The notes under the pieces are model-generated. The model did not search any database and was not told where the DNA came from. It saw nothing but the letters and a program-made list of their open reading frames with translations. A program made the position numbers and the translations under genes. A DNA stretch of 64,000 bases from Burkholderiales bacterium (lineage in GTDB: Bacteria > Pseudomonadota > Gammaproteobacteria > Burkholderiales > SG8-39): NCBI GenBank assembly GCA_046347635.1, contig JAXMFT010000003.1, positions 215,551 through 279,550 on the forward strand. The letters are read 5' to 3'. Positions 33,896 through 55,501 of this stretch are shown here, piece by piece (position 1 is the stretch's first letter; each line of letters opens with the position of its first letter).

Positions 33896-33897
33896 GT

Positions 33898-38204: not shown

Positions 38205-38422
38205 TTCGCCCGCCCCCTCTCGCCGGCGCAACAGCCGGCGATGCCCGCCCGCGGCGCCCGCCATCCTGCTGGCGGCGCCCGCGCGCGCCTATTGACCTAA
38301 CGAACGATCAGTAGGATAGTGGACGGGATACTAGTGCTGCTACCCGATCCGCGTCAACGATCCCGTCAAGAGGTCGCCGAACTCGCGGTCGAGCGCATGG
38401 CAGGCGGGAGGAGATCGCGCGC

Positions 38423-38889: not shown

Positions 38890-39921
38890 ATGAGCTTGAT
38901 TAACGCGCGTCCCGCCGTTGCAATCGCAATAGCCGTGCTGATCGCCGCGGCCGCAGCGCCCGCAACGGCTCAGAACATCGTGCTGCGCTACAGCCAGTGG
39001 ATCCCGGCGGCGCACCTCACGCAGAGCGGCGGCCTGCACAAGTTCTTCGACGAGGTGGCGAAGGCAACCGAAGGCCGGGTCAAGATCGAGCCGACCGCGC
39101 AGGCGCTCGGCGCGCCGCCGCGGCAAATGCAGCTCGCGGTGGATGGCATCGCGGACGTCGCCTGGGGCCTGCACGGCTACACCCCCGGCACCTATCCCCT
39201 GTCCGAGCTCGCCGAGCTGCCTTTCCTGACCAAGAGCGCCGAAGCCAACTCGGTGGCCTATTGGCGGGTGTTCAAGGCCATGTTCGAGAAGACCGGCATG
39301 CATCCGCCCGGGGTGCACACGCTCGCCCTCCACGTCCACACCGCCGGCCATGTCTACACCAACAAGAAGGTGATTCGCTCCCTGGATGACTTCAAGGGTC
39401 TCAGGCTCCGCACAGCCAACACCATCGTCACAGACGCCTTCCGAATGTTCGGCGCGACGCCGCTCCCGATGCCGGTCAGCCAGCTGCGCGACGCGCTGTC
39501 CAAGGGCGTCGCGGACGGAACGTCCTTTCTCGACGAGTCGATCTTCGGTTTCAAGATCGAGGACTTCGTTACCAGCACGTTCCGCATCCAGGGGGGGCTC
39601 TATAACTCCAGCTTCTTCCTGGTCATGAACCGGGCCAAGTGGGACTCGATCGCGAAGAAGGATCAGGACGCGATCACGGCGCTCGCCGGTGAGGCGCTCG
39701 CGCGCCGCATAGGAAAGCTGTGGGACGCCGAGGACACCGGGTCCATAGAAAAGTTGAAGGCGCGCGGCGTAACGTGGGTGACGCCCGATGCTGCGACGAT
39801 GGCGAAAATGCGCGAGATGCTCGCCCCGTTCGAGAAGAAGTGGGTCGAAGATGCCAGAGCGAAGGGGGTCGATGGCGTCGCGGCGCTCAGGATGTACCGG
39901 GAGGAGATCGCCAAGAACTGA
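38890..39921 (+). CDS. TRAP transporter solute-binding subunit (DctP family)
   Basis: 343 aa. The signal peptide ends in ATAQN, and the length and composition fit the DctP family. It is followed by Q- and M-type permease genes. Confidence 0.85.
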   Translation: MSLINARPAVAIAIAVLIAAAAAPATAQNIVLRYSQWIPAAHLTQSGGLHKFFDEVAKATEGRVKIEPTAQALGAPPRQMQLAVDGIADVAWGLHGYTPGTYPLSELAELPFLTKSAEANSVAYWRVFKAMFEKTGMHPPGVHTLALHVHTAGHVYTNKKVIRSLDDFKGLRLRTANTIVTDAFRMFGATPLPMPVSQLRDALSKGVADGTSFLDESIFGFKIEDFVTSTFRIQGGLYNSSFFLVMNRAKWDSIAKKDQDAITALAGEALARRIGKLWDAEDTGSIEKLKARGVTWVTPDAATMAKMREMLAPFEKKWVEDARAKGVDGVAALRMYREEIAKN

Positions 39922-40043: not shown

Positions 40044-40547
40044 GTGAATCACATAGCCGGTTTGCGGCCGATGCTGATCGCCCTCGCGGCCATTCTGGCC
40101 GTGATGGTCTTCCTCCTGATGATGATCACGGTAGTCGACGTACTCGGGCGAAACCTGTTCAACCTGCCGCTCACCGCGTCCTTCGAGCTCACGCGCCTCA
40201 CGCTCGGCATGATGGTGTTCGTCGCGTTGCCGCTGATCAGCGCGAACGACGAACACGTCACGATCGGCCTGTTCAACAGCATCTTCAAGGGGCGGACCGC
40301 GAACCGGAAGCAGTTCGTGGTCAGCCTGTTCCTGGCATTCCTGTGTGCCGTCTGGGCGCGTGAATTGTGGGTGCAGGCCACTGCCCTTGCCCAGCAGAAC
40401 GAGATGATGATGTTCCTGAAAGTCCGCCTGGCACCATTCGTGTACGTCATGAGTGCGCTCACGACGCTCACCGCAGTAATCATGCTGGTGCAGGGCTGGC
40501 TCAAGCTCACGGGGCGTTTCACGCCGCTCGACGGGCCCGGCGTCTAG
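40044..40547 (+). CDS. TRAP transporter small permease (DctQ family)
   Basis: 167 aa with four hydrophobic segments, positioned between the P and M subunit genes. The track start is a GTG, and an ATG alternative lies a few codons downstream. Confidence 0.75.
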   Translation: MNHIAGLRPMLIALAAILAVMVFLLMMITVVDVLGRNLFNLPLTASFELTRLTLGMMVFVALPLISANDEHVTIGLFNSIFKGRTANRKQFVVSLFLAFLCAVWARELWVQATALAQQNEMMMFLKVRLAPFVYVMSALTTLTAVIMLVQGWLKLTGRFTPLDGPGV

Positions 40548-40726: not shown

Positions 40727-42058
40727 ATGGAACCGATCGTCGTGGTACTGATCGGGTTTGCCGCACTGTTCATTCTGCTCTTCCTCGAGGTACCGATCGC
40801 CTTCGGCATGGGTTTCGTGGGTTTTCTGGGTTTCGCGCATCTGGTCGGCATCACCCCGGCCTTGCGGGGAATCGGACAGATCGCGTCCGACACCGTGTTC
40901 AACTACGAATTCTCGGTCCTGCCGTTGTTCATCCTGATGGGCAACTTCGTGGCCTATTCGCGCATCTCGCAGGATCTGTACGACGCCTCGCATGCCTGGC
41001 TCGGGCACCAGCGCGGCGGCCTTGCGGCCGCCACGATCGTCGCCTGCGCCGGATTCAGCGCGGTGTGCGGTTCATCCCTCGCCACCGCCGCGACCATGAC
41101 CAAGGTCGCGATGCCGCCGATGCGCCGCTACGGCTATGCCGACAGCCTCGCCGCCGGATGCATCGCGTCGGGCGGGACGCTCGGCATTCTCATTCCGCCG
41201 TCGGTCGCCTTCGTCTTCTACGGCATCATGACCCAGACCGACATCGGCAAGCTGTTCGCATCGGGGATTCTCCCGGGACTCCTCGGAGCAGCGCTCTACA
41301 TCGCGGCGATCCTGATCACCACCAGCATCTGGCCGCGTCTCGGTCCGCCCGGCGCGCGAACCCCGTGGCGACAGCGATTCACCGCGTTGCGAGGCGTTTG
41401 GGGAATGATGTTGCTCTTTGCCCTCGTGATGGGAGGGCTCTACAGCGGCTTCTTCACGCCGGTCGAGGCCGCCGGCATCGGGGCTGCGGGCGGCTGGGTC
41501 ATCGCGATGATGCGCCGATCCCTTCCGTGGGAGCTGTTCAAGCGGGTTCTGCTCGAATCCGGTCGCACCTCCGCCATGCTGCTGCTCATCCTCATCGGGT
41601 CGCTGATCTTTTCGCAGTTCATCAACGTCGCCAAGTTTCCCAACATCATTGCCGACTGGGTCAAGGCCCTGGACGTCGGACCCTACGCGGTGATGGCCAC
41701 GATCGTCTTCATCTACGTGATTCTCGGCTGCATACTCGAGAGCATCTCGATGCTGTTGCTCACGGTGCCGGTGTTCTATCCGATCATCGCCGCGCTCGAC
41801 TTCGGGCTCGGCGGTCCTGAGCGGACGCTGATCTGGTTCGGCGTCATCGTCGTCGTCACGATCGAGATCAGCCTGATCACGCCGCCGATCGGGCTGAACG
41901 TCTTCGTGCTCAAGAGCCTGCTTCCGGGAATCCCCCTGCGCACGATCTTCCGCGGCGTGACCCCGTTCATCATCGCCGACTTCGTGCGCCTCCTCGTACT
42001 GCTGGCGCTGCCGATCGTGTCGCTCGCGCTGCCGGACCTGATGGCGGTCAGGAAGTAG
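40727..42058 (+). CDS. TRAP transporter large permease (DctM family)
   Basis: 443 aa, highly hydrophobic. MEPIVVVLIGFAALFILLFLEVPIAFGMGFVG is typical of the DctM N-terminus. Confidence 0.85.
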   Translation: MEPIVVVLIGFAALFILLFLEVPIAFGMGFVGFLGFAHLVGITPALRGIGQIASDTVFNYEFSVLPLFILMGNFVAYSRISQDLYDASHAWLGHQRGGLAAATIVACAGFSAVCGSSLATAATMTKVAMPPMRRYGYADSLAAGCIASGGTLGILIPPSVAFVFYGIMTQTDIGKLFASGILPGLLGAALYIAAILITTSIWPRLGPPGARTPWRQRFTALRGVWGMMLLFALVMGGLYSGFFTPVEAAGIGAAGGWVIAMMRRSLPWELFKRVLLESGRTSAMLLLILIGSLIFSQFINVAKFPNIIADWVKALDVGPYAVMATIVFIYVILGCILESISMLLLTVPVFYPIIAALDFGLGGPERTLIWFGVIVVVTIEISLITPPIGLNVFVLKSLLPGIPLRTIFRGVTPFIIADFVRLLVLLALPIVSLALPDLMAVRK

Positions 42059-42109: not shown

Positions 42110-43675
42110 ATGCTCACGATGAGTTCGGCACTGGATCGATGCCGTCGCTTTCATGGCCGGAAGCGGGCGATCGTCGACTACTCGGGCGCCCGAAGCTGGG
42201 CGGAGCACCTGGAGCGGGTCGCGCGCGCGGCCGCCCTGCTGCAAGAGCTGGGCGTGAAGCGCGGCGAGCGCTTCGGCATCCTGTCGCGCAACGGGGTCCG
42301 CCACTGCGAGTTGCTGCATGCGGGCTACTGGGCCGGCATCGTGCCCGTCCCCGTCAACGTGCGCCTGGCACCGCCCGAGATCGCGTTCATCCTGCGCGAC
42401 GCCGATGTCAAGGCGCTCGCCGTCGAGGAGCCGTTCCTGCCGCTGGCGGAGAGCGAGCTCCTGAAGCCCTTCACCCGCAACGCTTTCGCGCTCGCGCCGG
42501 CTCCGCTCGGCGGGCCGCTGCCCGACTACGATTCCCTGCTGTCGGCCTGCACCCCGACCGATCCGGTCGAATCCGCCGAAGACGACGACGCGATCGTGCT
42601 CTACACCGGCGGCACCACCGGACGGAGCAAGGGCGTCCGGCTGACGCACCGCAACGTGGTCGCGAACGGCATGCAATGCGGCGCCGAGATGGGGTTTCGC
42701 GGCGATGACGTCTATCTTCATGTCGCCCCGATGTTCCATTCGGCCGACCTGCTGGGCACCGGCTTCACGCTCCTGGGAGGCGCGCACGCCTATCTGACCC
42801 AGTTCACGCCGACGAATCTGCTGCGCGCAATTCAGGACCTGAATGTGTCGTGGCTGATGCTGGCGCCGACCATGATCATGATGGTCCTGCGCGAGTTGAC
42901 GCCGGCCGATTTCGATCTTCGCCACCTGCGCGCGCTGCTCTACGGCAGCGCGCCAATGGCGGCGGAATGGGTCCGCAAGACGATCGAAGCGTTCCCCGGC
43001 GTCGCCATCGCGCAGGGCTACGGCCTCACGGAGACCTCACCAATCCTCACCTACCTCGATTTCGCCGAGCACATGCGAGCGATCGATTCTGGCGACTACG
43101 CGCGCCTTACCGCTGCCGGTCGTCCGATCATGGGGGTCGAGATGCGAATCTGCGACGCTGATGGCGAAGAGAGACCGCTTGGCCAGCCCGGCGAAGTCGT
43201 CGTTCGAGCTCCCAACGTCACGCGAGGCTATCTCAATCTGCCGGAGGAAACGGCGGCCGCCATCCGCGCGGACTGGTTTCATACCGGCGACATCGGGCGG
43301 ATGGACGAAGAGGGATTCCTGTATCTGCTCGACCGCAAGAAGGACATGGTGGTGACCGGCGGCGAGAACGTCTATTCGTCGGAGGTCGAGCACGCGCTTT
43401 ACCAGCACGCCGACGTGAGCGAGTGCGCGGTGATCGGCGTCCCCCACGATCGTTGGGGGGAGGCATTGCTCGCGGTAATCGTGCCCGCACCGGGAAAATC
43501 ACCGACGGCCGAGGCGCTGATCGCCCACTGCCGCAGCCGCATCGGCGGCTACAAGATCCCGCGCGAGTTCGTTTTCGTCCAGGAGCTCCCCAAGAGCGCA
43601 ATGGGCAAGATCCTCAAGACCGAACTGCGCAGGCGTTTCGGCGCCGCGATGCGCGGCGTGGACGAACGATCGTAG
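42110..43675 (+). CDS. Acyl-CoA ligase (AMP-forming)
   Basis: 521 aa with VLYTGGTTGRSKGV and WFHTGDIGRMDEEGFLYLLDRKKDMVVTGGENVYS. It is a paralog of 50546..52081. Confidence 0.8.
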   Translation: MLTMSSALDRCRRFHGRKRAIVDYSGARSWAEHLERVARAAALLQELGVKRGERFGILSRNGVRHCELLHAGYWAGIVPVPVNVRLAPPEIAFILRDADVKALAVEEPFLPLAESELLKPFTRNAFALAPAPLGGPLPDYDSLLSACTPTDPVESAEDDDAIVLYTGGTTGRSKGVRLTHRNVVANGMQCGAEMGFRGDDVYLHVAPMFHSADLLGTGFTLLGGAHAYLTQFTPTNLLRAIQDLNVSWLMLAPTMIMMVLRELTPADFDLRHLRALLYGSAPMAAEWVRKTIEAFPGVAIAQGYGLTETSPILTYLDFAEHMRAIDSGDYARLTAAGRPIMGVEMRICDADGEERPLGQPGEVVVRAPNVTRGYLNLPEETAAAIRADWFHTGDIGRMDEEGFLYLLDRKKDMVVTGGENVYSSEVEHALYQHADVSECAVIGVPHDRWGEALLAVIVPAPGKSPTAEALIAHCRSRIGGYKIPREFVFVQELPKSAMGKILKTELRRRFGAAMRGVDERS

Positions 43676-43688
43676 AGGAGAGATCGCC

Positions 43689-44105
43689 GTGAGGAACTCT
43701 CTGCAGCCGGGCACCACCCACACGGCGGAGTTCTCCGTCGACGCCGCACGCACGATCGCGTTCATGGGCGATGCGCTCCGGGTCTACGCGACGCCGAGCA
43801 TGTGCCTGGACATCGAGCAGACCTGCCGCAAGCTGCTCCTCGAACACCACGACCCGGGCGAGGACTCGGTCGGCGCGCGCATCGAGATCGACCATCTCGG
43901 CCCGACCCTCCTCGGGCAGGTGGTGCGGGTGACCGCGACGGTCGTCGAGCTCGCGCTGCCGCGCGTGACGCTGGAGGTCGAGGTGAAAGACGAGCTCGAC
44001 TTGGTCGGCAAGGCGCGCCACGTCCGCTTCGTCGTGGAAACCGCCCGCCAGGGCGAACGGCTGCGGAAGAAGGCGGAGCGCCTGAAGGCGCGCGGGGGCG
44101 CCTGA
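43689..44105 (+). CDS. Hotdog-fold thioesterase (FlK-like family)
   Basis: 138 aa. GTG 43689 is preceded by GAGGAGAG. The pattern H-x-F-x-V...ATPSMCLDIEQTC...SVGARIEIDHLGPT...G..HVRFVV resembles my recollection of fluoroacetyl-CoA thioesterase-type hotdog proteins. Confidence 0.55.
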   Translation: MRNSLQPGTTHTAEFSVDAARTIAFMGDALRVYATPSMCLDIEQTCRKLLLEHHDPGEDSVGARIEIDHLGPTLLGQVVRVTATVVELALPRVTLEVEVKDELDLVGKARHVRFVVETARQGERLRKKAERLKARGGA

Positions 44106-44131
44106 GGGCGCTGACCCGGAAGGCGATCGCG

Positions 44132-46933
44132 ATGACTACGCAAGGAAAACGGGGTGGCAGTCGCACGGTCCCCGTCTATTGCTATCAGTGCGTCGCAGGC
44201 CCCGACCTGATGAAAGTCGAAGTGCGGGACGGCGTCGCCACCCGCATCGAGTCGAACTACGACATCCGCAACGAGCATCCCGGCGGGGGGCGGGTCTGCG
44301 TGAAGGCCTACGGCCTGATCCAGAAGACCTACAACCCGAACCGCATCCGGCAGCCGATGAAGCGCACCAACCCGAGGAAGGGCCGCGCCGAGGATCCCGG
44401 CTTCGTGCCGATCTCCTGGGACGAGGCGCTCGACATCGTCGGCGCGAAGCTGCGCGAGGTGCGCGCGTCCGGGCTGCTGAACGAGGAAGGCTTTCCGCGG
44501 CTCGCCACCTCCACCGGGGGCGGCGGCACGCCGGTGCAGTACATGGGCACCTTCCCGGCGTTCATGGCCGCCTGGGGGCCGATCGACCAGGGCTACGGCG
44601 CGGGACAGGGCGTCAAGTGCTACCACTCCGAGCACCTCTACGGCGAGCTCTGGCACCGCGCCTTCATCGTCGCCCCCGACACGCCGTACGTGAACTACAT
44701 CATCAACTGCGGCAACAACGTCGAGGCCTCGGGCGGCGTGGTCGGCATCTGGCGCGAGGCCGACGCGCGCGTGCGCGGCGCCAAGCGCGTGCAGGTCGAG
44801 CCGCACCTGTCGGTCACCGGTGCGCTGTCGGCCGAATGGGTGCCGATCAAGCCGAAGACCGACGCCGCGTTTCTCTTCGGGCTCGTCCACCGCATCCTGC
44901 ACGAGCGCGGCTGGCGCGAGTCCTGCGACCTGCCCTATCTGAAGCACCGCACGAGTTCCCCCTACCTCGTCGGCCCCAACGGCTGGTACCTGCGCGACGC
45001 GCAGAGCGGCAAGCCGCTCGTGTGGGACGCGGCCGACGGGCGGGCGAAGACGCACGACGACCCGGGCCTCATCGACCCGGCGCTCGACGGCGAGTACACG
45101 GTCGCGGGCGTGGAGCACGGGCCCGACGGCGAGCGCATCGAGCACCCTGCCGCGGGCGGCGGCGGCGCGGGCGCGCGCGCCGTTCCCGCGTTCCGGAAGC
45201 TGCTCGAGCACATGCGGCCCTACTCCGCCGACTGGGCGGCCGGCGAGTGCGACGTTCCCGCGGCGACCATCCGCCGCGTCGCCGACGAGTACGTGGCGCA
45301 TGCCTGCATTGGCCAGACGATCGAGATCGAGGGCAGGACCCTGCCGTTCCGACCGGTCGCGATCACGCTCGGCAAGACGGTGAACAACGGCTTCGGCGGT
45401 TTCCACTGCTGCTGGGCGCGCACGCTGCTCGCGGTCATGGTCGGGGCCCTGGAAGTGCCGGGCGGCACGCTCGGCACGACGGTCAAGCTGGTGCGGCCCG
45501 CCGCGTCGCGCGTCGGCTCGGTGCAGCCCGGGCCGGACGGGCTGATGTCCTTCCAGTTCAACGAAACGTCGCGCGAAGGCTGGATGCGCAAGCCGCACAT
45601 CCGCAACGCCTACAAGACGCTGGTCCCGCTCGTCTCGGACTCGCCGTGGTCGCCGGCGCTCGGCCCCGCGCATCTGCCCTGGCTGTTCCAGAAGGAGGCG
45701 CCGGACCACTGGCCGCGAACCCGGCCGCCCGATGTCTGGTTCTGCTACCGGACCAATCCGGCGATCTCGTCCTGGAACGCGCCCGAGGTGGCCAACCGCC
45801 TCGCCGAGTTCCCGTTCATCGTCGCGTTCGCCTATACCGACGACGAGACCAACCACTTCGCGGACATCCTCCTGCCCGAGGCCTCCGACCTCGAGAGCCT
45901 GCAGCTGATCCGCATCGGCTCCACCAAGTTCCAGGAGCAGTTCTGGAAGCACGAAGGCTGGGCCATCCGCCAGCCGGCGATCGACTCGCCGTGCGACACG
46001 CGGGACTTCACCGACATCGCCACTGGCCTCGCCGAACGCGCGGGCATTCTCGAGGCATACATCGCGGCGGTGAATCGCGGCGCTGCGGGCGTCGCGCTGC
46101 GCGATCGCAACGGGCGCTACGACTACGCCCTCGACGCCACGCGGACGCCGACCCGCGACCAGGTCTGGGACGCGTTCTGCAAGGCGGCGAGCAGCGAGCT
46201 CACCGGCGGGGACGAGGTGCGCGACCTCGCCTGGTTCAAGGAGCACGGCTATCTGCTGCGGCCGTTCCCGCAGCTCGACTGGTACCTCTACCCGGCCCTG
46301 GAGCGCCAGGGCCTTCGGTTCGAGCTGCCCTACCAGGAGCGGCTGACGCGCCACGGGCGCGAGCTCGCCAACCGCCTGCGCGAATCCGGGATCGAGTGGT
46401 GGAACGCGCAGCTCACGGAGTACGAGTTCATGCCGACCTACGAGCGCTTCCCGGAGATCTGGATCGAGTACGCGCGCGAGTACGGCCGCGACCCCGCCGA
46501 GTTCCCGTTCTGGGCGCTCACCGCGCGCTCGATGCAGTACAGCTGGGGCGCGAACGTCGGCCTGCCGCTGATCAACGAGGTGGCGAACAACGTCTCCGGC
46601 CACCGCGGGGTGATCCTGAACCGCACCACCGCGCGGCGCCTGGGCATCGCCGAGGGCGAGCGCCTGGTGATCGAGTCGGTCTCGGGCGTGACCGAGGGCA
46701 GCGCGGTGCTGCGCGAGGGCATCCGGCCCGACACGCTGCTGATGATCGGGCAGTTCGACCACTGGAAGACTCCCTACGCAAAGAACCTCAAGCTGCCGAG
46801 CCTGAACTCGCTCACCGACCTCTCGCTGAAGCTTACCGACAGCTCGGGCAGCGGCGCGGACGTGATGCGGGTGCGGATCCGCCGCGCGGCCACCGGCGAG
46901 ATCCTCGGCGCGCCCGCAGCGGTACCCGCGTGA
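44132..46933 (+). CDS. Molybdopterin (bis-MGD) oxidoreductase catalytic subunit, no Tat signal
   Basis: ATG 44132 (MTTQGKRGGSRTVPVYCYQCVAGPD...), 933 aa. ISWDEALDIVGAKLREV, NYIINCGNNVEAS and WVPIKPKTDAAFLFG are MopB-type segments. The C-terminal VILNRTTARRLGIAEGERLVIES is a dinucleotide-binding barrel. The N-terminus lacks an RR motif and a hydrophobic h-region. Confidence 0.8.
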   Translation: MTTQGKRGGSRTVPVYCYQCVAGPDLMKVEVRDGVATRIESNYDIRNEHPGGGRVCVKAYGLIQKTYNPNRIRQPMKRTNPRKGRAEDPGFVPISWDEALDIVGAKLREVRASGLLNEEGFPRLATSTGGGGTPVQYMGTFPAFMAAWGPIDQGYGAGQGVKCYHSEHLYGELWHRAFIVAPDTPYVNYIINCGNNVEASGGVVGIWREADARVRGAKRVQVEPHLSVTGALSAEWVPIKPKTDAAFLFGLVHRILHERGWRESCDLPYLKHRTSSPYLVGPNGWYLRDAQSGKPLVWDAADGRAKTHDDPGLIDPALDGEYTVAGVEHGPDGERIEHPAAGGGGAGARAVPAFRKLLEHMRPYSADWAAGECDVPAATIRRVADEYVAHACIGQTIEIEGRTLPFRPVAITLGKTVNNGFGGFHCCWARTLLAVMVGALEVPGGTLGTTVKLVRPAASRVGSVQPGPDGLMSFQFNETSREGWMRKPHIRNAYKTLVPLVSDSPWSPALGPAHLPWLFQKEAPDHWPRTRPPDVWFCYRTNPAISSWNAPEVANRLAEFPFIVAFAYTDDETNHFADILLPEASDLESLQLIRIGSTKFQEQFWKHEGWAIRQPAIDSPCDTRDFTDIATGLAERAGILEAYIAAVNRGAAGVALRDRNGRYDYALDATRTPTRDQVWDAFCKAASSELTGGDEVRDLAWFKEHGYLLRPFPQLDWYLYPALERQGLRFELPYQERLTRHGRELANRLRESGIEWWNAQLTEYEFMPTYERFPEIWIEYAREYGRDPAEFPFWALTARSMQYSWGANVGLPLINEVANNVSGHRGVILNRTTARRLGIAEGERLVIESVSGVTEGSAVLREGIRPDTLLMIGQFDHWKTPYAKNLKLPSLNSLTDLSLKLTDSSGSGADVMRVRIRRAATGEILGAPAAVPA

Positions 46934-48558
46934 GCGAGGTCACCGAAGGCCGGGCCGTGCCGCGCTGGGGCATGGTGATCGACCTCAACCGCTGCGTCGG
47001 CTGCCAGACGTGCACCATCGCCTGCAAGCACGCCAACGACACTACGCCGGGCGTGCAGTGGCGCCGCGTGCTCGACGTCGAGCAGGGCGCCTTTCCGGAC
47101 GTCCAGCGCCTGTTCCTGGTGGTCGGCTGCCAGCACTGCGCGGATCCGCCCTGCGTGCCGGTCTGCCCGACCGGCGCGACGCGCCAGCGCGCCGATGGCC
47201 TGGTGACGATGAACTACGACGTGTGCATCGGCTGCGCCTACTGCGCCGTGTCCTGTCCCTACGAGGCGCGCACCATCGTGCACGACCCCAAGGGCTACTA
47301 CGGCGGCGCGCTGACGCGGCAGGAGCAGGCAACCGCGCATCCCGAGCGCCGCGGCGTCGCGCAGAAGTGCACCTTCTGCCAGGGCCGCATCGAGGACGGC
47401 ATTGCGCAGGGCCTGACCCCGGGCGTCCACCCCGAGGCGACGCCGGCCTGCTCCGCCGCGTGCATCGCGCAAGCGATCCACTTCGGCGACTTCAACGACG
47501 CCGGGAGCAACGTGTCGCGGCTGCTCCGCGAGCAGCCCAGCCTGCAGCTCAACGCCGGGGTCGGCACCGACCCGCAGATCAAGTACCTCTACACCACGCC
47601 CGCGGTGCCAGGCCGGCCGGCCGGAGTCCAGGCCGACGAGGAAGAGCGCCTCGCCGATCCGTTCAACCCGCTGGTCGGGTCGCTGCAGAAGTTCTGGGAC
47701 TGGCGCGCCGCGATGAACTGGATCCTGGGCGGGATCGGCAGCGGCCTGGCGATCGCCACCGGGCTCGCGCTCGGGTCCGGCGCGCTCGACCCGCGCCTCG
47801 CGCCCGTGCTGTTCGTCGCCGCCGCGGCGATCGTGTCGGTGGGCCTGTTCTGCGTGTTCCTGAAGATCGGCCGGCAGGCGCGCTTCTGGCGCGCGGCGCT
47901 GCGCCCGCACACCTCGTGGATGTCGCGCGAGCTCTATGCGGCGATTGCGTTCTACGCGTCGGTGCTCGCCGCCCTCGTCGCGCCGGGACCGGGCCCGTTC
48001 GCGCTCGCGCCGCTTTCCGCCGCGGCGTTCCTCCTCTGCCAGGCGAAGATCCTGCACCTCGCGCGCGGCATTCCGGCGTGGCGCGCACCGCTCGTGCCGT
48101 GGTTGCTTCTCGCAAGCGGGCTGCTCGAGGGCTGCGGAGCGCTCGCGGCGGCGCCGCTGCTGGCCGGCGGCGCGGGCGTCGCGTGGGCCGGCGGTGCGAT
48201 CATCGGGCTCGCCGTCGTCAACGCGCTGCTGTGGCGCGCCTACGTCGGGACCTCCCGCGCGCGCGGCATCGGTCCGCTCGCGCGTCGCGTCCTCGCCCGG
48301 GTAACCGCGCCGCTGCACGCGATCGGGCACGCGCTGCCCGCTGTGCTGGCGGCCGCCGCGGCGTTCGTCCCCGCCGCGTCCGGCGTCTTGCTGGCGCTAG
48401 CGGGCCTCGCCGCAATCGCCGGCGGCGCGCTGTGGAAGTTCGCGCTCGTCGTGCGCGCGGGGTACACCCAGGGCTTCGAGCTCTCGCACCTGCCCCAGCG
48501 CGGCTCCGGCCGCCGCGCAGCGCCGCCGCGCCTGGGCGGCTGGACGCGTTCGGCATGA
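46930..48558 (+). CDS. Fusion of a four-cluster ferredoxin-type subunit (DmsB-like) with a ~8-TM membrane anchor (DmsC-like)
   Basis: GTG 46930 overlaps the alpha-subunit stop (GTGA). The Cys groups are CVGCQTCTIAC, CQHCADPPCVPVCP, CIGCAYCAVSCP and CTFCQGR...C. From about residue 260 onward I count about 8 hydrophobic helices. Confidence 0.75.
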   Translation: MSEVTEGRAVPRWGMVIDLNRCVGCQTCTIACKHANDTTPGVQWRRVLDVEQGAFPDVQRLFLVVGCQHCADPPCVPVCPTGATRQRADGLVTMNYDVCIGCAYCAVSCPYEARTIVHDPKGYYGGALTRQEQATAHPERRGVAQKCTFCQGRIEDGIAQGLTPGVHPEATPACSAACIAQAIHFGDFNDAGSNVSRLLREQPSLQLNAGVGTDPQIKYLYTTPAVPGRPAGVQADEEERLADPFNPLVGSLQKFWDWRAAMNWILGGIGSGLAIATGLALGSGALDPRLAPVLFVAAAAIVSVGLFCVFLKIGRQARFWRAALRPHTSWMSRELYAAIAFYASVLAALVAPGPGPFALAPLSAAAFLLCQAKILHLARGIPAWRAPLVPWLLLASGLLEGCGALAAAPLLAGGAGVAWAGGAIIGLAVVNALLWRAYVGTSRARGIGPLARRVLARVTAPLHAIGHALPAVLAAAAAFVPAASGVLLALAGLAAIAGGALWKFALVVRAGYTQGFELSHLPQRGSGRRAAPPRLGGWTRSA

Positions 48559-48591: not shown

Positions 48592-49236
48592 CTAGGTCCG
48601 GCGGCGCGTCCGGGCGCGCTGGGTGCGGGGTCCGGCACGTCCTGCGACTTCCCGTTCGAACAATCCGTGGCAGATCAGCCGCGTGAACGTCTCGGCCACC
48701 TGCGCCAGGCTCACGTCGGTCACCGCATGCGGCCAGCGCGCGACCGAGTTGCACATGCCGAGCACCGCCCGCACGGCCAGCGGCGAGTCGAGGGTCGCAG
48801 GGATGGTGCCTTCGCGCTTGCCCTCCTCCAGCAGCGCGCACCACAGCGCCTCGTAGGCGCGCGATTGCGCGTCGAGCGGGTAGCGGGCGCGGCGCGGCAG
48901 GTCGCGCCGCTGGAAGAGGAAAGCATGCACGTAGAAGCGCTTCTCGAGCAGCGGCTCGAGGTGCGCTCGCACCGCGCGGCGCACCCGCTCCTCGGCAGGC
49001 AGCGCGAGCGCCACGACCGCCTCCAGCCGCTGCACGAACTCGCCGATGCCGTAGCGGCAGATCGCCTCCAGCAGATTCGACTTGGAGGGGAACCAGTAGT
49101 ACAGGGCGGCCGGCTTGACGCCGCAGCGGGCGGCGATCCGGCGCATGCTCGCCCCGGGGTAGCCGCGCGCGGCGAACTCCGTCGCCGCAACGTGCAGCAG
49201 TTCAAACTTCCTGTCGGTGCTGGCCTTGCGAGGCAT
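48592..49236 (-). CDS. TetR/AcrR-family transcriptional regulator (TetR-2)
   Basis: 214 aa. RKFELLHVAATEFAARGYPGASMRRIAARCGVKPAALYYWFPSK is the HTH. It shares AHL.P, LG.CNSV..W and other blocks with TetR-1. Confidence 0.85.
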   Translation of the reverse strand: MPRKASTDRKFELLHVAATEFAARGYPGASMRRIAARCGVKPAALYYWFPSKSNLLEAICRYGIGEFVQRLEAVVALALPAEERVRRAVRAHLEPLLEKRFYVHAFLFQRRDLPRRARYPLDAQSRAYEALWCALLEEGKREGTIPATLDSPLAVRAVLGMCNSVARWPHAVTDVSLAQVAETFTRLICHGLFEREVAGRAGPRTQRARTRRRT

Positions 49237-49271: not shown

Positions 49272-50519
49272 ATGGGAGAGAGGCTGACCGTCGACAACCC
49301 CCCGAGCGCCGAGGGCCCGTGGCGCGAGCGCGGCCCGGTGACCGGCCCGAAGGACGCGGCCTGCGGCTTCGAGGTGACGGAGAATTTCGAGCGCTTCAAC
49401 CAGTCCAACGACATCTATACGCGCGGCCAGTGGGACGCGCGCATTCGCTCCGAGAAGGTGCTCAACTGGTTTCGCGGAATGTTCCGCACCGGACTGGGGG
49501 CGCGCAACGCCGAGGGCTATTCGGTGCGCGACTTCGCGCTGCGCAACGCGGGCTGGATGGGTGCCAACCTGACCATCCAGCGCAGCCTGCACCTGGGTCG
49601 CACCGACGGCTTCCTCGACTACATCCGGCCCTATTCCGAGCCCAATCCGGAGAAATATCCGGTCGAATCGCCCGCGGCGATGAGCGAGGAGGTCAAGCGC
49701 GTGGCGCGCCTCTTCGGCGCCGACGACGTGGGCATCACGCAATACGATCCGCGCTGGCATTACACCGCGAGCTTCTCGCCCAAGACCCTTGAGGAGAAGC
49801 CATATGCGATCCCCGACGGCCTGCCCAACGTCATCGTTGTCGTCACGGCCATGCACTACGAAGCGGTGCAGTCCTATCCCTCGGCCACGGCCGGGGTGGC
49901 GGTCGGCCACGGCTACTCGCGCGACTGCGAGCTCGTGCAGGCGATCGCCACCTATCTCCTGAACCTCGGCTACCGGGCGGTCGCCACCGTCAACGACACC
50001 TCACTCGCCATCCCCTACGCCATCCAGGCCGGGCTGGGCGAATACGGCCGCAACGGCCTGCTGATCACCAAGGATTTCGGCCCACGCGTGCGCATCGGCC
50101 GCATCCACACCGACGTGCCGCTCGCCCACGACCAGCCGATCCGCTTCGGCGTGCGCGAGTTCTGCGACACGACCTGCCGGCGCTGCGCCTCGGAGTGCCC
50201 TCCGAAGGCCATCTCCTTCGGCAAACCCACCGAGGAAGTACCGGGCCGTTCGCTGATCAAGGGCGTGCGCAAGTGGCAGGTCGACCCGGAGAAGTGTTTC
50301 AAGTTCTGGGTCAACCAATCGACCGAATGCGGCGTGTGCATGCGCGTGTGCCCCTACAACAAGGATACCTCGAGGTGGGCGTCGCGGACCTGGTACCGCC
50401 TGTGGCGCCGCATGGCTGCCTCGCCGTTGAAGCGCTTCGCCCTCTGGCTGGACGTGAAGCTCGGATACGGCAAGCGCGTCAAGCCGCGCGAGTACTGGCG
50501 CAAGTTCAGCTCGACCTGA
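49272..50519 (+). CDS. Reductive dehalogenase (RdhA) family protein, cytoplasmic type
   Basis: 415 aa with FERFNQSNDIYTR, GLGEYGRNGLLITKDFGPRVRIGRIHTD, FCDTTCRRCASECPPKAI and KCFKFWVNQSTECGVCMRVCPYN (two Fe-S cluster motifs). There is no twin-arginine signal and no adjacent rdhB-like gene. Confidence 0.8.
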   Translation: MGERLTVDNPPSAEGPWRERGPVTGPKDAACGFEVTENFERFNQSNDIYTRGQWDARIRSEKVLNWFRGMFRTGLGARNAEGYSVRDFALRNAGWMGANLTIQRSLHLGRTDGFLDYIRPYSEPNPEKYPVESPAAMSEEVKRVARLFGADDVGITQYDPRWHYTASFSPKTLEEKPYAIPDGLPNVIVVVTAMHYEAVQSYPSATAGVAVGHGYSRDCELVQAIATYLLNLGYRAVATVNDTSLAIPYAIQAGLGEYGRNGLLITKDFGPRVRIGRIHTDVPLAHDQPIRFGVREFCDTTCRRCASECPPKAISFGKPTEEVPGRSLIKGVRKWQVDPEKCFKFWVNQSTECGVCMRVCPYNKDTSRWASRTWYRLWRRMAASPLKRFALWLDVKLGYGKRVKPREYWRKFSST

Positions 50520-50545: not shown

Positions 50546-52081
50546 ATGCAGAACCTCGTCCGCGCATTCCGGAACACCGTTCGGCACAACGGGCCGCGCC
50601 CCGCGCTTCTCGACGCTTCGCGCACGTTCACCTGGAACGAGCTCGGCGAGCGCGTGGCACGAGCCGCCGGCGCCCTGCACCATCTCGGCATCCGGCAGGG
50701 CGCGCGCTTCGCGATCCTGTCGCGCAACGGCTTTCGCCACGAGGAGCTGAAATGGGCCGGCCTGTGGCTCGGCGCGGTGCCGGTGCCGATCAACTTCCGC
50801 CTCGCGCCGCCGGAGATCGCGCAGATCCTGGCCGACGCCGGCTGCGAGCGGGTTCTGGTCGAAGCGCCCTTCGCGCCGATGCTCGGCCAGTCCGCGCTCG
50901 CCGCGTGGCAGGCGGGCGCCGTCCCGATCGGCGAGGCCGCGGGCACAAGCGGCGCGCCTTACGAGGCGCTGCTCGCCGCCGCCGACCCGCTGCCGCCCCA
51001 TGACGCCGGGGCGGCGGACGACGCGATCCTTCTCTACACCGGCGGAACCACCGGGCGCAGCAAGGGCGTGCGCCTGTCGCACGCCAACATCCTCGCCTGC
51101 GCCCACGCCTTTGCGGTGGGCACCGGGGCACGCCGCGACCAGGTCTACTTGCACGCCGCGCCGATGTTTCACTCCGCGGACCTGCTCGGGCTCGCCTGGC
51201 TGCTGCAAGGCGCCCCGCAGTGCTATCTGCCGCAGTTCTCCCCCGCCGCGTTCCTGGACGCGCTCCGGCGCTACAGCGTGGGTGCCGTGGTGACGGTGCC
51301 CACGATGCTGATCGCGACGATCTCGGACCCTGCGTTCGCGCAGGCCGACGCCGCCAGCCTGCGCGTGCTGATCTACGGCGCCGCGCCCATGGCGGTGGAG
51401 TGGATCAGGCGCGTCGCGCAGGCCTTTCCCCAGGTCGATCTCTACAACTGCTACGGCCTGACCGAGACCGCACCTGACCTCACGATTTTCGACGCGCAGG
51501 AGTTCCGTGCCGCCATCGGCTCCGCCGCGCCACACCTGACTTCGGTCGGCAAGCCCAACCTCGTGAACGAGCTCAAGGTGGTCCGGCCCGACGGCAGCGA
51601 GTGCGCCACCGATGAGGCCGGCGAACTGCTCGCACGGGGTCCCAATGTCATGCCCGGTTACCTGAACCGCCCGGAGGAGACGAGCGCGGCGCTGCGCGAG
51701 GGCTGGCTGCACACCGGGGACGTCGCGCGCATCGACGCCAACGGCTATGTGTACCTGCTCGACCGGCTGAAGGACATGGTGATCACCGGCGGCGAGAACG
51801 TCTATTCCTCGGAGGTGGAGGCGGTGCTGCACCGGCACCCGGACGTCGCCGAGGCCGCGATCATCGGCGTGCCGGACCCGAAGCTGGGCGAAGCGGTGAT
51901 GGCCGTGATCGTGCCGCGCAGCGGCGCAAACCCCGATCCGGAGCAGATCTCGGCGCATTGCCGCGCCGCGCTGGGCGGGTTCAAGGTGCCGCGGCGCTTC
52001 AGCTTCGTCCAGGCGCTCCCCAAGAGCGCGCTGGGCAAGGTGCTCAAGGCGGAGTTGCGCAGCCAAGTACGCGCGGGGTAA
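50546..52081 (+). CDS. Acyl-CoA ligase (AMP-forming)
   Basis: ATG 50546 (MQNLVRAFRNTVRHNG...) is preceded by GCGAGG. The motifs LLYTGGTTGRSKGV and WLHTGDVARIDANGYVYLLDRLKDMVITGGENVYS are present. Confidence 0.8.
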   Translation: MQNLVRAFRNTVRHNGPRPALLDASRTFTWNELGERVARAAGALHHLGIRQGARFAILSRNGFRHEELKWAGLWLGAVPVPINFRLAPPEIAQILADAGCERVLVEAPFAPMLGQSALAAWQAGAVPIGEAAGTSGAPYEALLAAADPLPPHDAGAADDAILLYTGGTTGRSKGVRLSHANILACAHAFAVGTGARRDQVYLHAAPMFHSADLLGLAWLLQGAPQCYLPQFSPAAFLDALRRYSVGAVVTVPTMLIATISDPAFAQADAASLRVLIYGAAPMAVEWIRRVAQAFPQVDLYNCYGLTETAPDLTIFDAQEFRAAIGSAAPHLTSVGKPNLVNELKVVRPDGSECATDEAGELLARGPNVMPGYLNRPEETSAALREGWLHTGDVARIDANGYVYLLDRLKDMVITGGENVYSSEVEAVLHRHPDVAEAAIIGVPDPKLGEAVMAVIVPRSGANPDPEQISAHCRAALGGFKVPRRFSFVQALPKSALGKVLKAELRSQVRAG

Positions 52082-52158
52082 ACCACGAGGGCGGCGCATT
52101 CTGGCAGACCCGCGCCGGATCAAGTAATCTCGGCATTGATCCCCCCCGCGATTTGCCC

Positions 52159-53073
52159 ATGCCGCACCCTCTCCCCAGCTCGATCGACGACACCGCCGCC
52201 CTCCTCGCCGGCGCCGACTACGTCGCCGAGCGCAGCCTCGCGACCGCGGTGTTCTTGAGCCTGCGGATGGGCAAGCCCCTCTTCCTCGAGGGCGAAGCCG
52301 GGGTCGGCAAGACCGAGATCGCCAAGGTCCTCGCTACCACGCTCGGCCGCAAGCTCGTGCGCCTGCAGTGCTACGAGGGCCTCGACGTGGCGAGCGCGGT
52401 GTACGAATGGAACTACCCGCGCCAGATGATCGAGATCCGCCTGGCCGAGGCCGAGGGCGTGAAGTCGCGCGCAGGGCTCGAGGGGGACATCTTCACCGAG
52501 AAGTTCCTCATCCGCCGCCCGATCCTGCAGGCGCTCGAGGGCGACATCGCCGGCCCGCCGGTGCTGCTGATCGACGAGCTCGACCGCACCGACGAGCCGT
52601 TCGAGGCTTATCTCCTCGAGGTGCTCGCGGACTTCCAGGTCACGATTCCCGAGATCGGCACGGTGCGGGCGGAGGAGCCGCCGATCGTCGTCATCACCTC
52701 GAACCGCACGCGCGAGATCCACGACGCGGTGAAGCGCCGCTGCCTCTACCACTGGGTGGACTACCCGAACGCGCAGCGCGAGCTCGAGATCCTGCGCCGC
52801 AAGGCGCCCGGCGCCTCGGAGCGGCTGTCGCAGGAAGTGGTCGGCTTCGTGCAGCGCCTGCGCGCGATGGATCTCTTCAAGCTGCCCGGGGTGGCGGAGA
52901 CGATCGACTGGTCGCAGGCGCTGGTGGCGCTCGACACGCTCGCGCTCGACCCGGAGACGATCAACAACACGCTCGGCGCGCTGCTGAAGTACCAGGACGA
53001 CATCGCGCGCGTCCAGGGCACGGAGGCCGCGCGCATCCTGTCCGAAGTGAAGGCGGAGCTCGCGACCGCCTGA
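52159..53073 (+). CDS. coxD: MoxR-type AAA+ ATPase (CoxD-like)
   Basis: ATG 52159, 304 aa. LFLEGEAGVGKTEIAK is Walker A and VLLIDELDRTD is Walker B. Confidence 0.8.
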   Translation: MPHPLPSSIDDTAALLAGADYVAERSLATAVFLSLRMGKPLFLEGEAGVGKTEIAKVLATTLGRKLVRLQCYEGLDVASAVYEWNYPRQMIEIRLAEAEGVKSRAGLEGDIFTEKFLIRRPILQALEGDIAGPPVLLIDELDRTDEPFEAYLLEVLADFQVTIPEIGTVRAEEPPIVVITSNRTREIHDAVKRRCLYHWVDYPNAQRELEILRRKAPGASERLSQEVVGFVQRLRAMDLFKLPGVAETIDWSQALVALDTLALDPETINNTLGALLKYQDDIARVQGTEAARILSEVKAELATA

Positions 53074-53090
53074 GCCGCGCCCGGCCGGGG

Positions 53091-54170
53091 CTAGAGCCCG
53101 GCGAGCTTCAGCACCTCCGCGCGCGCGAGCTTCAGCGCCTCGCCCGCCGCGAGGATCTCCTCCCAGGTCGTCGCATCCACCGCCAGTCCCTTGGCGGCCC
53201 GCTCCCTGCGCCGCGCGCGCTCCGGATCCCCCGCGATCAGCACGCCCTCGGCGCCGGCGGCGGGCGGCGAGGCCTTCTCCCACGCGATGAACGCTTCGGC
53301 CTGCGCGGCGAGGAACTGCGCGGTGCCGAGCGCCTCGGGGTCGATCAGGATCGAGAGCATCCCGTTCATCACGCGCATCTTCCCCTGGTCGGGGAGGTGC
53401 TGCGTGCCGCCGCCGGCGAGCGCGCCGCCGAGCAGCTCGCACGCGAGCGCGAGCCCCGAACCCTTGTGCTCGCCGAAGGGCATGATCGCGCCGAAGGGCG
53501 GGATCACGCTGTAGCGCGGGTCGGTGGAGGGATCGCCCTTGTCGTCGATCACGATGCCCGGCTCGAGGCGCTTGCCCTGGTTGTGGGCGACGCGGGTCTT
53601 GCCCTGCGCGATGCGGCTGGTGGCGAAGTCGAGCACGAAGTGCTCGCCGTTCGGGCGCGGGATGCCGATGCACACCGGATTGGTGCCGAAGCGCGCGTCG
53701 CGCCCGCCCCAGGGCGCGACGATCGGCCGCGAGATCACGTTGACGAAGTGGAGCGACACGAGCCCCGCCGCGAGGCACTGCTCGGCCCAGTGGCCGATGC
53801 GCCCCAGGTGGTGCGAGTTGCCGAGCGCGACCACGCACGAGCCGTGCTTGCGCGCCCGCTCGATCCCGAGCGCCATCGCCTCCAGCCCGATCACCTGCCC
53901 GTAGCCCGCGCGGCCGTCGAGGCGCAGCATCGTCCCGGCGTCGAGGACGACCTGCGGGTGCTGGTTGACGGCGAGCCCGCCCTCCAGCAGGGCCTTCACG
54001 TAGCGCGGGATCATGCCGACGCCGTGCGAGTCGTGGCCGGCGAGGTTGGCCGCCACGAGGTTGCCGGCGACCAGCGCCGCTTCGCGCGCCTCCGAGCCGC
54101 CCTGCGCCACGATGGCCTCGACCGCGGCCTCGAGGCGCGGCGCTGCGATGACGATCTCCGGTGCCGCCAC
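53091..54170 (-). CDS. Ldh2-family malate/L-lactate/ureidoglycolate-type dehydrogenase
   Basis: C-terminal 359 codons of the 765-aa ORF. GTG 54170 is preceded by GGAG. AGHDSHGVGMIPRY, GNSHHLGRIGHWAE and PFGEHKGSGLAL are family motifs. Confidence 0.8.
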   Translation of the reverse strand: MAAPEIVIAAPRLEAAVEAIVAQGGSEAREAALVAGNLVAANLAGHDSHGVGMIPRYVKALLEGGLAVNQHPQVVLDAGTMLRLDGRAGYGQVIGLEAMALGIERARKHGSCVVALGNSHHLGRIGHWAEQCLAAGLVSLHFVNVISRPIVAPWGGRDARFGTNPVCIGIPRPNGEHFVLDFATSRIAQGKTRVAHNQGKRLEPGIVIDDKGDPSTDPRYSVIPPFGAIMPFGEHKGSGLALACELLGGALAGGGTQHLPDQGKMRVMNGMLSILIDPEALGTAQFLAAQAEAFIAWEKASPPAAGAEGVLIAGDPERARRRERAAKGLAVDATTWEEILAAGEALKLARAEVLKLAGL

Positions 54171-55469: not shown

Positions 55470-55501
55470 CCCCCGTCCACCCGGAACGAAGAGGAACGAC
55501 G

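Follow-up and report, generated by a model that had tools for sequence, protein, structure and literature searches.

What does a molybdenum oxidoreductase without an export signal do beside genes for a coenzyme A (CoA) ligase and a thioesterase? The question is posed by a 64,000-nt stretch of Burkholderiales DNA (contig JAXMFT010000003.1; G+C about 72%), called the window below. In it the gene for a catalytic alpha subunit runs, through a 4-nt GTGA overlap at 46930-46933, into a single gene for a protein (beta-gamma) that joins a four-cluster ferredoxin to a membrane anchor. The ligase and thioesterase genes lie directly upstream on the same strand, with gaps of 13 nt between ligase and thioesterase and 26 nt between thioesterase and alpha. 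An earlier note on this DNA had described the overlap, the fused protein with about eight membrane helices and the two upstream genes, all of which our gene calls bear out (made by third-position G+C and checked with Pfam and NCBIfam; Table 1). It had also asked whether the enzyme resembles PadBCD and acts on a CoA thioester in the cytoplasm. PadBCD, with subunits of 93, 27 and 26 kDa encoded by padB, padC and padD, is the phenylacetyl-CoA:quinone oxidoreductase (EC 1.17.5.1), which carries out the four-electron oxidation of phenylacetyl-CoA to phenylglyoxylyl-CoA with a quinone as acceptor. Sequence comparison places the window enzyme as the closest relative of PadBCD and a widespread variant from its sister clade, neither an ortholog of PadBCD nor a new kind of system. 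We give a probability of roughly 0.62 to the reading that the interval 38.4-48.6 kb is a catabolic operon in which a carboxylic acid is oxidized at its alpha-carbon, without oxygen, as the CoA thioester.

The kinship with PadB extends along the whole complex. Alpha has the domains of the dimethyl sulfoxide (DMSO) reductase, or bis-molybdopterin guanine dinucleotide (bis-MGD), family (PF00384, 66 bits against a cutoff of 24; PF01568, 30.2 against 26.8) and matches Thauera PadB at 58.6% identity along its full length (residues 1-918). Residues 12-221 of beta-gamma align with Thauera PadC at 56% identity, and residues 252-536 with Thauera PadD at 36%. A search of 1.84 billion cluster representatives with alpha returned a best match at 59%, whose 90% cluster consists of Thauera proteins, and a next best at no more than 48%. 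A query with Thauera PadB itself recovered Aromatoleum toluvorans, A. anaerobium and Azoarcus sp. DN11 at 81-82%. The closest 120 database relatives of alpha are 68-88% identical to it, and a neighbor-joining tree resolves the window clade as a monophyletic sister group of Thauera PadB, not nested in the canonical clade. Thauera PadB shares 53-61% identity with all 121 members of the window clade, against 67-97% inside the canonical clade. A look-up of the exact alpha protein gave no record and led instead to an identical beta-gamma; tblastn against plasmids found nothing closer than 29% identity.

That the Thauera/Aromatoleum/Azoarcus clade represents canonical PadB is something we infer from gene order, subunit sizes, organism and published gene names. 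In Thauera, FdhD is followed by an alpha of 917 aa, a four-cluster ferredoxin of 215 aa, a membrane protein of 301 aa and a divergent PaaX. In Azoarcus sp. DN11 the order is PaaX, FdhD, PadB (918 aa), PadC (215), PadD (305), five genes with PadEFGHI domain content and a PaaK-type PadJ, in agreement with the pad cluster padBCDEFGHIJ of the literature (PMC4453571); padC and padD are also listed as separate genes in strain EbN1 (PMC5109826). The literature that we searched on PadBCD, phenylglyoxylyl-CoA and the DMSO-reductase family holds brief mentions and does not describe a fused PadCD, the window clade or the thioesterase gene.

The N-terminus of alpha bears the marks of PadB. By translation it reads MTTQGKRGGSRTVPVYCYQCVAGPD, and no twin-arginine (Tat) motif is present there, in the N-terminus of any of the 120 homologs or in that of beta-gamma (MSEVTEGRAVPRWGMVIDLNRC). 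An alternative upstream start supplies none either. The in-frame extension, which reaches back to 43802, is rich in Arg, Pro and Gly, lacks a hydrophobic h-region and overlaps the thioesterase frame, itself with a Pfam FlK match at E=7.7e-30; in 117 of the 120 homologs, those with a recognizable CxxC, the start lies 8-40 residues ahead of the first Cys. The missing Tat signal that the earlier note had reported is therefore genuine, but it does not set this enzyme apart: canonical PadB likewise has none, and the N-terminus of Thauera PadB is equally short.

Much the same can be said of the FS0 iron-sulfur motif, which had been called degenerate. C-x2-C does stand at 44180-44191 and the next Cys is residue 56, and the full motif, C17-x2-C20-x4-D25-x30-C56, has the spacing found in PadB. 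An alignment of 31 homologs shows no variation at C17, C20, P24, D25 or C56, and in another, of alpha, Thauera PadB and 15 more distant representatives, D25 falls opposite the third FS0 Cys of the outgroups. The Asp does not vary within the window clade and recurs in Thauera PadB and in most of the PadB-like relatives. As read from these alignments, the apparent degeneracy is a clade-wide exchange of Cys for Asp at the third ligand, shared with canonical PadB, and so a character of the lineage and not of this locus alone. The motif points to either an Asp-ligated [4Fe-4S] or a [3Fe-4S] cluster.

The likely Mo ligand is Cys163, as in the Psr, Phs and Arr group. This residue is invariant and, in the multiple alignment, shares a column with the sole Cys conserved in all outgroup relatives of the DMSO-reductase family. 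In pairwise and profile HMMER alignments the ligand Cys of ArrA and PsrA lands 5-6 residues earlier, opposite A157 or G158. A ligand-less Mo site of the arsenite-oxidase type was considered and dropped, since Cys163 aligns with the conserved outgroup Cys in the multiple alignment.

The second protein combines the counterparts of PadC and PadD. The ATG at 46972 comes too late to be its start, because R12, W13 and G14 are invariant in homologs. The Cys residues of the ferredoxin domain are grouped as C22/25/28/32, C67/70/75/79, C99/102/105/109 and C147/150/174/178, and the NCBIfam matches for this domain (DsrO, QrcC, ArrB, TtrB and DmsB-like) all fall under their cutoffs. AlphaFold2 predicted the eight anchor helices with a predicted local distance difference test score (pLDDT) mostly above 90; its model of the Fe-S domain was poor (pLDDT below 50 at residues 1-125), and only the membrane domain was used. 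With Foldseek, the sole significant PDB match of the anchor was PsrC (2vpw_C, E=1.4e-5, target-normalized TM-score 0.75), followed by the NrfD-type ActC of alternative complex III. The DmsC family PF04976 is found in many beta-gamma homologs and PF03916 in a few; the anchor of the window protein has no Pfam DmsC match at E<0.01 and no other Pfam match. The modeled fold and the four-cluster ferredoxin partner are those of an NrfD/PsrC/DmsC-type quinone-interacting subunit, and quinone binding is predicted.

The loops of the anchor carry 16 Lys and Arg residues on the side of the Fe-S domain (C-terminal tail included) and 0 on the other, which by the positive-inside rule puts the Fe-S domain, and alpha in contact with it, on the cytoplasmic side. 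We read the enzyme from this charge pattern as membrane-bound and facing the cytoplasm, with the N- and C-termini of the anchor predicted to lie inside.

A sequencing frameshift as the origin of the fusion is excluded. The beta and gamma halves form one open reading frame (ORF) in all related loci with enough downstream sequence (about 70 genomes), with the exception of locus L034, where the frame is broken, and a 100% identical beta-gamma (P0121) is found in ENA, Logan and NCBI assemblies, on 17 contigs assembled independently, with the same gene calls of 933 aa and 542 aa. The closest 120 database homologs of beta-gamma are 494-605 aa long. In six canonical loci, by contrast, from Thauera, Azoarcus, Rhodoblastus, Motiliproteus and locus L100, PadC (215-221 aa) and PadD (279-305 aa) are separate proteins. 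The fusion is a property of the window clade.

The CoA genes upstream point to a thioester. The operon ligase has its best NCBIfam match in PRK06187 (469 bits, just under the cutoff of 476) and its best PDB matches among fatty-acyl/feruloyl-CoA synthetases (8weu, 8wev); orthologs with 51-73% identity occupy the same position in about 18 other loci. The thioesterase matches PF22636 (FlK) at 103.5 bits against a cutoff of 27, and its T35, E43, H69 and R113 align with T42, E50, H76 and R120 of Streptomyces cattleya FlK (3KV7, 3P3F), in which Thr, Glu and His are the catalytic residues. The match to FlK is distant (E about 1e-7), and the gate F36 corresponds to an Ala, A29. The genomic role of the window thioesterase also differs: its partner is a Mo oxidoreductase, and its likely substrate is a 2-oxoacyl-CoA rather than fluoroacetyl-CoA. 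Because FlK tells acyl-CoAs apart by their alpha substituent, its family is a plausible source of a hydrolase able to cut the 2-oxo product while leaving the substrate intact. By this analogy the window thioesterase is a candidate 2-oxoacyl-CoA hydrolase that would release the product. The phenylacetate pathway requires the hydrolysis of phenylglyoxylyl-CoA (PMC9765128). In the padBCDEFGHIJ cluster of Rhodoblastus sphagnicola (locus L098), a gene of the FlK family whose partial product is 47% identical follows padJ at 18459-18748, and this gene is a candidate, on homology and position, for the phenylglyoxylyl-CoA hydrolase of the classical pathway. To our knowledge the gene for this activity (EC 3.1.2.25) has not been assigned.

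A scan that took a single genome for each species turned up 454 that encode a close relative of alpha. We searched the neighborhoods of the best 80 loci (68-86% identity) with the window proteins and recurrent neighbor families. These loci come mostly from uncultured Burkholderiales and Alphaproteobacteria, including sponge Rhodospirillaceae, Defluviicoccus and one isolate, Lacisediminimonas profundi. In 56 of the 80 loci at least one gene of CoA metabolism (for a ligase, a CoA-transferase, an FlK-type thioesterase or an enoyl-CoA hydratase) is found no more than about 6 kb from alpha, usually directly upstream on the same strand. AMP-ligases are found near alpha in 31/80, type-III CoA-transferases in 19/80, enoyl-CoA hydratases in 6/80 and an indolepyruvate-type 2-oxoacid:ferredoxin oxidoreductase in 5/80; an FlK-type thioesterase stands directly upstream of alpha in 29/80. 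The order seen in the window (ligase, thioesterase, alpha, beta-gamma) recurs with orthologs in about 18 other loci. Other recurrent orders place before alpha and beta-gamma a luciferase-like monooxygenase, CoA-transferase and thioesterase; a CoA-transferase and a short-chain dehydrogenase/reductase (SDR); or an RdhA/QueG-like gene and a ligase of the 657-aa type. The same survey gives no support to two further enzymes as members of the pathway. The earlier note had speculated that a D-2-hydroxyacid dehydrogenase (28843-29835) and an Ldh2-family enzyme (53091-54170) might act on the product, and their linkage to the Mo enzyme is not conserved: a weak homolog of the former lies near alpha in 3/80 loci, and the latter in 0/80.

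Ahead of the ligase, the plus-strand block begins with genes for a small ferredoxin and a tripartite ATP-independent periplasmic (TRAP) transporter (Table 1). The ferredoxin would belong to the module on its position only. The solute-binding subunit DctP probably serves the predicted uptake of a carboxylate substrate; its closest solved relatives in a PDB search are 4p56, 7nr2/7nra, 5i5p/5iga and 7nsw, which are presumed binders of aromatic carboxylates (mandelate, hydroxycinnamates, benzoates). The only promoter-like sites between 38000 and 49400 are the divergent pair at 38292-38357, with 0.6 expected from shuffled sequence; this pair is a candidate start of the plus-strand operon. The convergent TetR gene at the operon end (48592-49236), a candidate local regulator, occupies the same position in independent assemblies. 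A second TetR-family gene with the same TetR_C_24 domain lies at 35995-36615 (-), and the two flank the plus-strand operon.

Table 1. Positions in the window of the proposed operon, its functional sites and associated features.
Feature	Position	Strand	Basis or remark
Divergent pair of sigma-70-like promoter sites	38292..38357		Gap between minus-strand ligase (ends 38264) and ferredoxin gene; consensus match only
Small ferredoxin, 7Fe type, 107 aa	38423..38746	+	Pfam DUF3470 (4.7e-18) and Fer4; first gene of the plus-strand block
TRAP solute-binding subunit DctP	38890..39921	+	Pfam DctP (1.7e-36); NCBIfam TRAP_S1 above cutoff
TRAP small membrane subunit DctQ	40062..40547	+	Pfam DctQ (3.3e-15)
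TRAP large membrane subunit DctM	40727..42058	+	Pfam DctM (2.7e-82)
AMP-forming acyl-CoA ligase, FadD type, 521 aa	42110..43675	+	Pfam AMP-binding and AMP-binding_C
FlK-family hotdog thioesterase, 138 aa	43689..44105	+	Pfam FlK
PadB-like catalytic alpha subunit, 933 aa	44132..46933	+	Pfam Molybdopterin and Molydop_binding
FS0 segment of alpha	44180..44299	+	C17 44180-44182, C20 44189-44191, D25 44204-44206, C56 44297-44299
Cys163 of alpha, putative Mo ligand	44618..44620	+	Inside invariant K162-C163-x-H165-S166-E167-H168
Fused PadC-PadD (beta-gamma) protein, 542 aa	46930..48558	+	Alignment with Thauera PadC/PadD
Four-cluster ferredoxin domain (PadC, DmsB, PsrB-like)	46993..47463	+	16 Cys in four groups
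Eight-helix membrane anchor (PadD, DmsC, PsrC type), residues 258-509	47701..48456	+	AlphaFold2, Foldseek
TetR-family regulator, convergent with the operon end	48592..49236	-	Pfam TetR_N and TetR_C_24
Second FadD-type ligase	50546..52081	+	50% identical to the operon ligase (42110-43675)

Taken together, the identity to PadB, the alignment with PadC and PadD, the topology and the CoA-gene neighbors support the earlier suggestion of a cytoplasm-facing, PadBCD-like enzyme that acts on a CoA thioester, and a route through the operon can be proposed. The TRAP transporter would import an acid, which the FadD-type ligase would turn into its acyl-CoA. At the cytoplasmic face of the membrane, the PadB-like Mo subunit would then convert the alpha-CH2 group to C=O with water, a four-electron oxidation. 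Electrons would pass from the Mo, probably ligated by Cys163, through the Asp-containing FS0 cluster and the four [4Fe-4S] clusters of the PadC-like domain, and would end at a quinone site in the fused eight-helix PadD/PsrC-type domain, on the cytoplasmic side. The FlK-type thioesterase would finally split the 2-oxoacyl-CoA into 2-oxo acid and CoA, choosing the alpha-substituted product over the unoxidized substrate.

Several observations weigh against this proposal. An identity of 59% to PadB fixes neither substrate nor reaction. In the account cited in PMC4453571, purified PadBCD (Rhee and Fuchs 1999) comes from Thauera aromatica only, which lies outside the window clade, and the tie between the Thauera and Azoarcus genes and the purified enzyme is made through sizes, gene order and gene names, not through a published sequence. 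The AlphaFold2 model of alpha, built from a 31-sequence alignment, has a mean pLDDT of 67 and falls below 50 at residues 156-235, a span that includes the putative Mo ligand, so that this ligand and the substrate pocket are read from the alignment only. The closest relatives of the enzyme (82-88%, in Burkholderiales) mostly have no adjacent ligase or thioesterase, and adjoin instead cox-type xanthine dehydrogenase (XDH) genes, a LysR regulator and an acetoacetyl-CoA-synthetase-like gene. Finally, no enzyme that consumes a 2-oxoacid appeared among the genes scanned (the island, its flanks and the larger genes of the window; several small genes lay outside the scan).

The alternative that survives best is that the window enzyme is a true functional ortholog of PadBCD with fused padC and padD, serving the anaerobic or oxygen-independent degradation of phenylalanine or phenylacetate. 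PadB is its nearest characterized relative, both systems have a 4-nt overlap between the genes for alpha and beta, and names based on KEGG Orthology (KO) at JGI agree, calling the alpha and beta-gamma homologs 'phenylacetyl-CoA:acceptor oxidoreductase' and its subunit. The indolepyruvate-type oxidoreductase present at some loci could make or consume aryl 2-oxo acids, and an FlK-type thioesterase accompanies at least one canonical pad cluster, that of Rhodoblastus. Set against this are the separate sister clade, with the gap in identity already given, and the accessory genes. FdhD lies directly upstream in 4/5 distinct canonical organisms (Thauera, Azoarcus sp. DN11, Motiliproteus and L100, not Rhodoblastus), whereas Thauera FdhD as query matched nothing in the window or in the window-clade loci searched. 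Canonical PadJ is a PaaK-type ligase with AMP-binding_C_2, whereas all four ligases of the window carry AMP-binding_C (compared with loci L097 and L098), the operon ligase being of the FadD type. No PadEFGHI, no 2-oxoacid oxidoreductase of the pyruvate:ferredoxin oxidoreductase/thiamine pyrophosphate (POR/TPP) type and no PaaX was found among the window genes scanned, several small genes lying outside the scan. Moreover, the partners vary from locus to locus (four ligase types, CoA-transferases, an SDR, a luciferase-like monooxygenase), suggesting several substrates. The FadD-type ligase, the variable partners and the lack of PadEFGHI, PaaX and FdhD among the genes searched argue against a simple phenylacetate pathway, and we judge orthology unlikely, though it deserves a hearing. 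The Pad-like reading in the earlier note is supported, but for a sister clade with other accessory genes, which does not imply phenylacetyl-CoA as the substrate. The most likely substrate class is an arylacetate-like acid.

It is also conceivable that the Mo enzyme acts on a free substrate without CoA, for example in an aromatic or heterocyclic (trans)hydroxylation, and that the ligase and thioesterase serve neighboring steps. Cytoplasmic enzymes of the DMSO-reductase family that act on free aromatics exist, and the closest Burkholderiales relatives, often without an adjacent CoA gene and beside hydroxylase genes of the XDH family, would suit this idea. The large subunit of pyrogallol transhydroxylase and resorcinol hydroxylase, however, is no close relative of alpha: pyrogallol hydroxytransferase (4v4c) is a marginal match (E=3.6e-4, residues 59-261), set against 59% identity to PadB. 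That subunit lacks the FS0 cluster, whereas alpha retains the FS0 motif. The tight linkage recurs with four types of CoA-forming enzyme in the same upstream position, and the position of a thioesterase gene right in front of the enzyme makes little sense if no thioester serves as its substrate or leaves as its product. We consider action on a free substrate distinctly improbable and retain the acyl-CoA reading.

The better-known relatives of the DMSO-reductase family share the architecture of the window enzyme and differ in most of what surrounds it. It has the three modules of PsrABC of Thermus thermophilus (2VPW) and of PhsABC, in which a bis-MGD subunit is joined by a four-cluster ferredoxin and a quinone-binding anchor of the NrfD/PsrC type with eight helices. 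Its membrane domain finds its closest structural counterpart in PsrC, alpha has PsrA and PhsA among its best sequence matches, and Cys is probably the Mo ligand in both systems. Psr, however, is exported by Tat and faces the periplasm, has four Cys in FS0 and separate subunits, and is a quinol-fed reductase, whereas the window enzyme has no Tat signal and the inverse orientation, and is presumably a dehydrogenase that feeds quinone. The similarity of Psr and Phs to alpha is distant (E about 1e-19 to 1e-28, over parts of the protein only). The best solved match of alpha is ArrA (6cz7; E=1.8e-23 with a single sequence, 5.6e-31 with a profile), ahead of PsrA (2vpw, 4.4e-19), all in partial alignments, and the segment after FS0, KRTNPKKGR-EDP-FVPISWDEALD, is conserved in ArrAB (6CZ7). 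ArrAB differs in being periplasmic and Tat-dependent, with a four-Cys FS0, no membrane subunit in the crystal form and an oxyanion substrate. With E. coli DmsABC the enzyme shares a DmsB-like Fe-S domain and, in the C-terminal half of many fused homologs, PF04976; DmsA, by contrast, carries Ser as its Mo ligand and is exported by Tat, and the subunits of its complex are separate. Scores against the curated models of these families are far under cutoff: PhsA 134 against 694, ArrA 96 against 1600, the DmsA subfamily 95 against 778 and TtrA 28 against 1750. Alpha does not cluster with Psr, Ttr or Dms, and its best solved matches, ArrA and PsrA, cover short segments at E of 1e-23 to 1e-31.

That the enzyme is a periplasmic, quinol-fed reductase of the Psr, Phs, Ttr, Arr or Dms type, its missing Tat signal and its fusion being artifacts of annotation or assembly, is scarcely credible, for although the best curated and solved matches (PhsA, ArrA and PsrA for alpha; DsrO, QrcC, ArrB, TtrB and DmsB for beta) and the PsrC fold of the anchor point that way, they are countered by those sub-cutoff scores, the lack of a twin-arginine motif and of a usable upstream start, the 16:0 charge bias, the Asp in place of the third FS0 Cys, and a fusion that is kept across genomes and in independent assemblies.

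More distant PadB-like enzymes show a similar core with other partners. In Syntrophales and Thermodesulfobacteriota, relatives with 44-48% identity to alpha have the Cys-Cys-Asp-Cys FS0 and no Tat signal, and one has an AMP-ligase two genes upstream; unlike the window enzyme, they have a separate beta of 227-230 aa, and their third part is a 320-aa NrfD protein or a Pyr_redox_2 flavoprotein. The Syntrophales loci (L092, L093) carry the flavoprotein in place of the membrane anchor, with a UbiD decarboxylase gene directly upstream; those of Thermodesulfobacteriota (L094, L095) carry the separate NrfD protein, with an AMP-ligase nearby. At the level of gene content these loci show that the third module is exchangeable, apparently a soluble flavoprotein in the former group and an NrfD protein in the latter.

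The operon sits in an island of related genes. Most genes between 29.9 and 52.1 kb have a third-position G+C (GC3) of 0.84-0.91, against 0.95-0.98 in the flanks, and this block of about 22 kb holds four AMP-forming CoA ligases (29944-31917, 36612-38264, 42110-43675 and 50546-52081). Three of the four are of types that adjoin the padB-like gene in other genomes, and several acids may be funneled to one oxidase. Relatives (53-54%) of the ligase at 50546-52081 stand directly upstream of alpha in two loci (L072, L074), and this ligase is possibly an alternative feeder of the Mo enzyme. A minus-strand pair at 29944-32866 consists of a 657-aa AMP-ligase (29944-31917), extended at its N-terminus by about 150 aa, and a divergent RdhA/QueG-like protein of 314 aa (31922-32866). 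In L026, L028 and L029 orthologs of the pair (70-86% identity) immediately precede the padB-like gene, and in L031 (61-72%) they lie downstream of it, a conserved proximity that suggests a functional link between the pair and the Mo enzyme.

The island encodes a family of five RdhA/QueG-like Fe-S paralogs, at 31922-35895 (-) and 49272-50519 (+). The 314-aa copy has no Pfam match and is joined to a paralog by blastp (E=8e-13); beside it lies a tandem trio of 317-325 aa (32930-33895, 33898-34875 and 34942-35895, all on the minus strand). The fifth, a 415-aa protein at 49272-50519, exceeds the NCBIfam reductive-dehalogenase cutoff (181 against 160) and, as it has no Tat signal, is of the cytoplasmic RdhA type.

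The lower-GC3 block appears to split a cox-type cluster of the XDH family (23199-28777 and 52153-56065), with MobA-like, XdhC, CoxS, CoxL and CoxM-like genes on one side and CoxD, CoxE and CoxG-like genes on the other; the D-2-hydroxyacid dehydrogenase and Ldh2 genes mentioned above sit among these cox-type genes bordering the block. CoxL-like genes also occur near the padB-like gene in L001, L031, L043, L061, L067, L069, L070 and L078. The NCBIfam scores of the cox-type genes lie under every specific cutoff, and a 4-hydroxybenzoyl-CoA reductase was rejected for them (alpha subunit 375 against a cutoff of 995; the best models are generic ones of the CoxL or glyceraldehyde-dehydrogenase type). 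Near the window ends are two multi-PAS cyclic-di-GMP proteins unrelated to the enzyme, a PAS-GGDEF protein of 878 aa at 393-3029 (-) and a PAS-GAF-GGDEF-EAL protein of 1152 aa at 58114-61572 (+).

PadBCD is the only described enzyme known to us in which water, and not oxygen, serves to oxidize an acyl-CoA at its alpha-methylene. The window enzyme adds to it a sister clade found in hundreds of mostly uncultured Burkholderiales and Alphaproteobacteria, including metagenome-assembled genomes from sponges and activated sludge. KO-based annotation names all of these proteins phenylacetyl-CoA oxidoreductase, and may thereby overstate anaerobic phenylalanine and phenylacetate degradation in metagenomes. 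The single-chain ferredoxin-anchor may ease expression and structural study, and the Cys-to-Asp exchange in FS0, conserved across the PadB lineage, is a defined target for spectroscopy. The conserved FlK-type thioesterase offers a concrete candidate for the hydrolase step EC 3.1.2.25, while the variable CoA-activating partners point to substrates beyond phenylacetate. One may speculate further that the window clade is no phenylacetate enzyme but forms the core of a widespread system of oxygen-independent alpha-oxidation, present in at least 454 species of Proteobacteria, in which a PadB-type Mo enzyme with its fused ferredoxin-anchor accepts varied acyl-CoAs supplied by interchangeable ligases and CoA-transferases and the FlK-type thioesterase is the long-unassigned 2-oxoacyl-CoA (phenylglyoxylyl-CoA) hydrolase. 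In this genome, where the enzyme shares its 22-kb island with four ligases, five cytoplasmic RdhA/QueG-like Fe-S proteins and a ferredoxin, it would then operate in concert with reductases of the cobalamin type, on substrates such as halogenated or hydroxylated arylacetic acids. We offer this wider picture tentatively, as one that is possible rather than probable.

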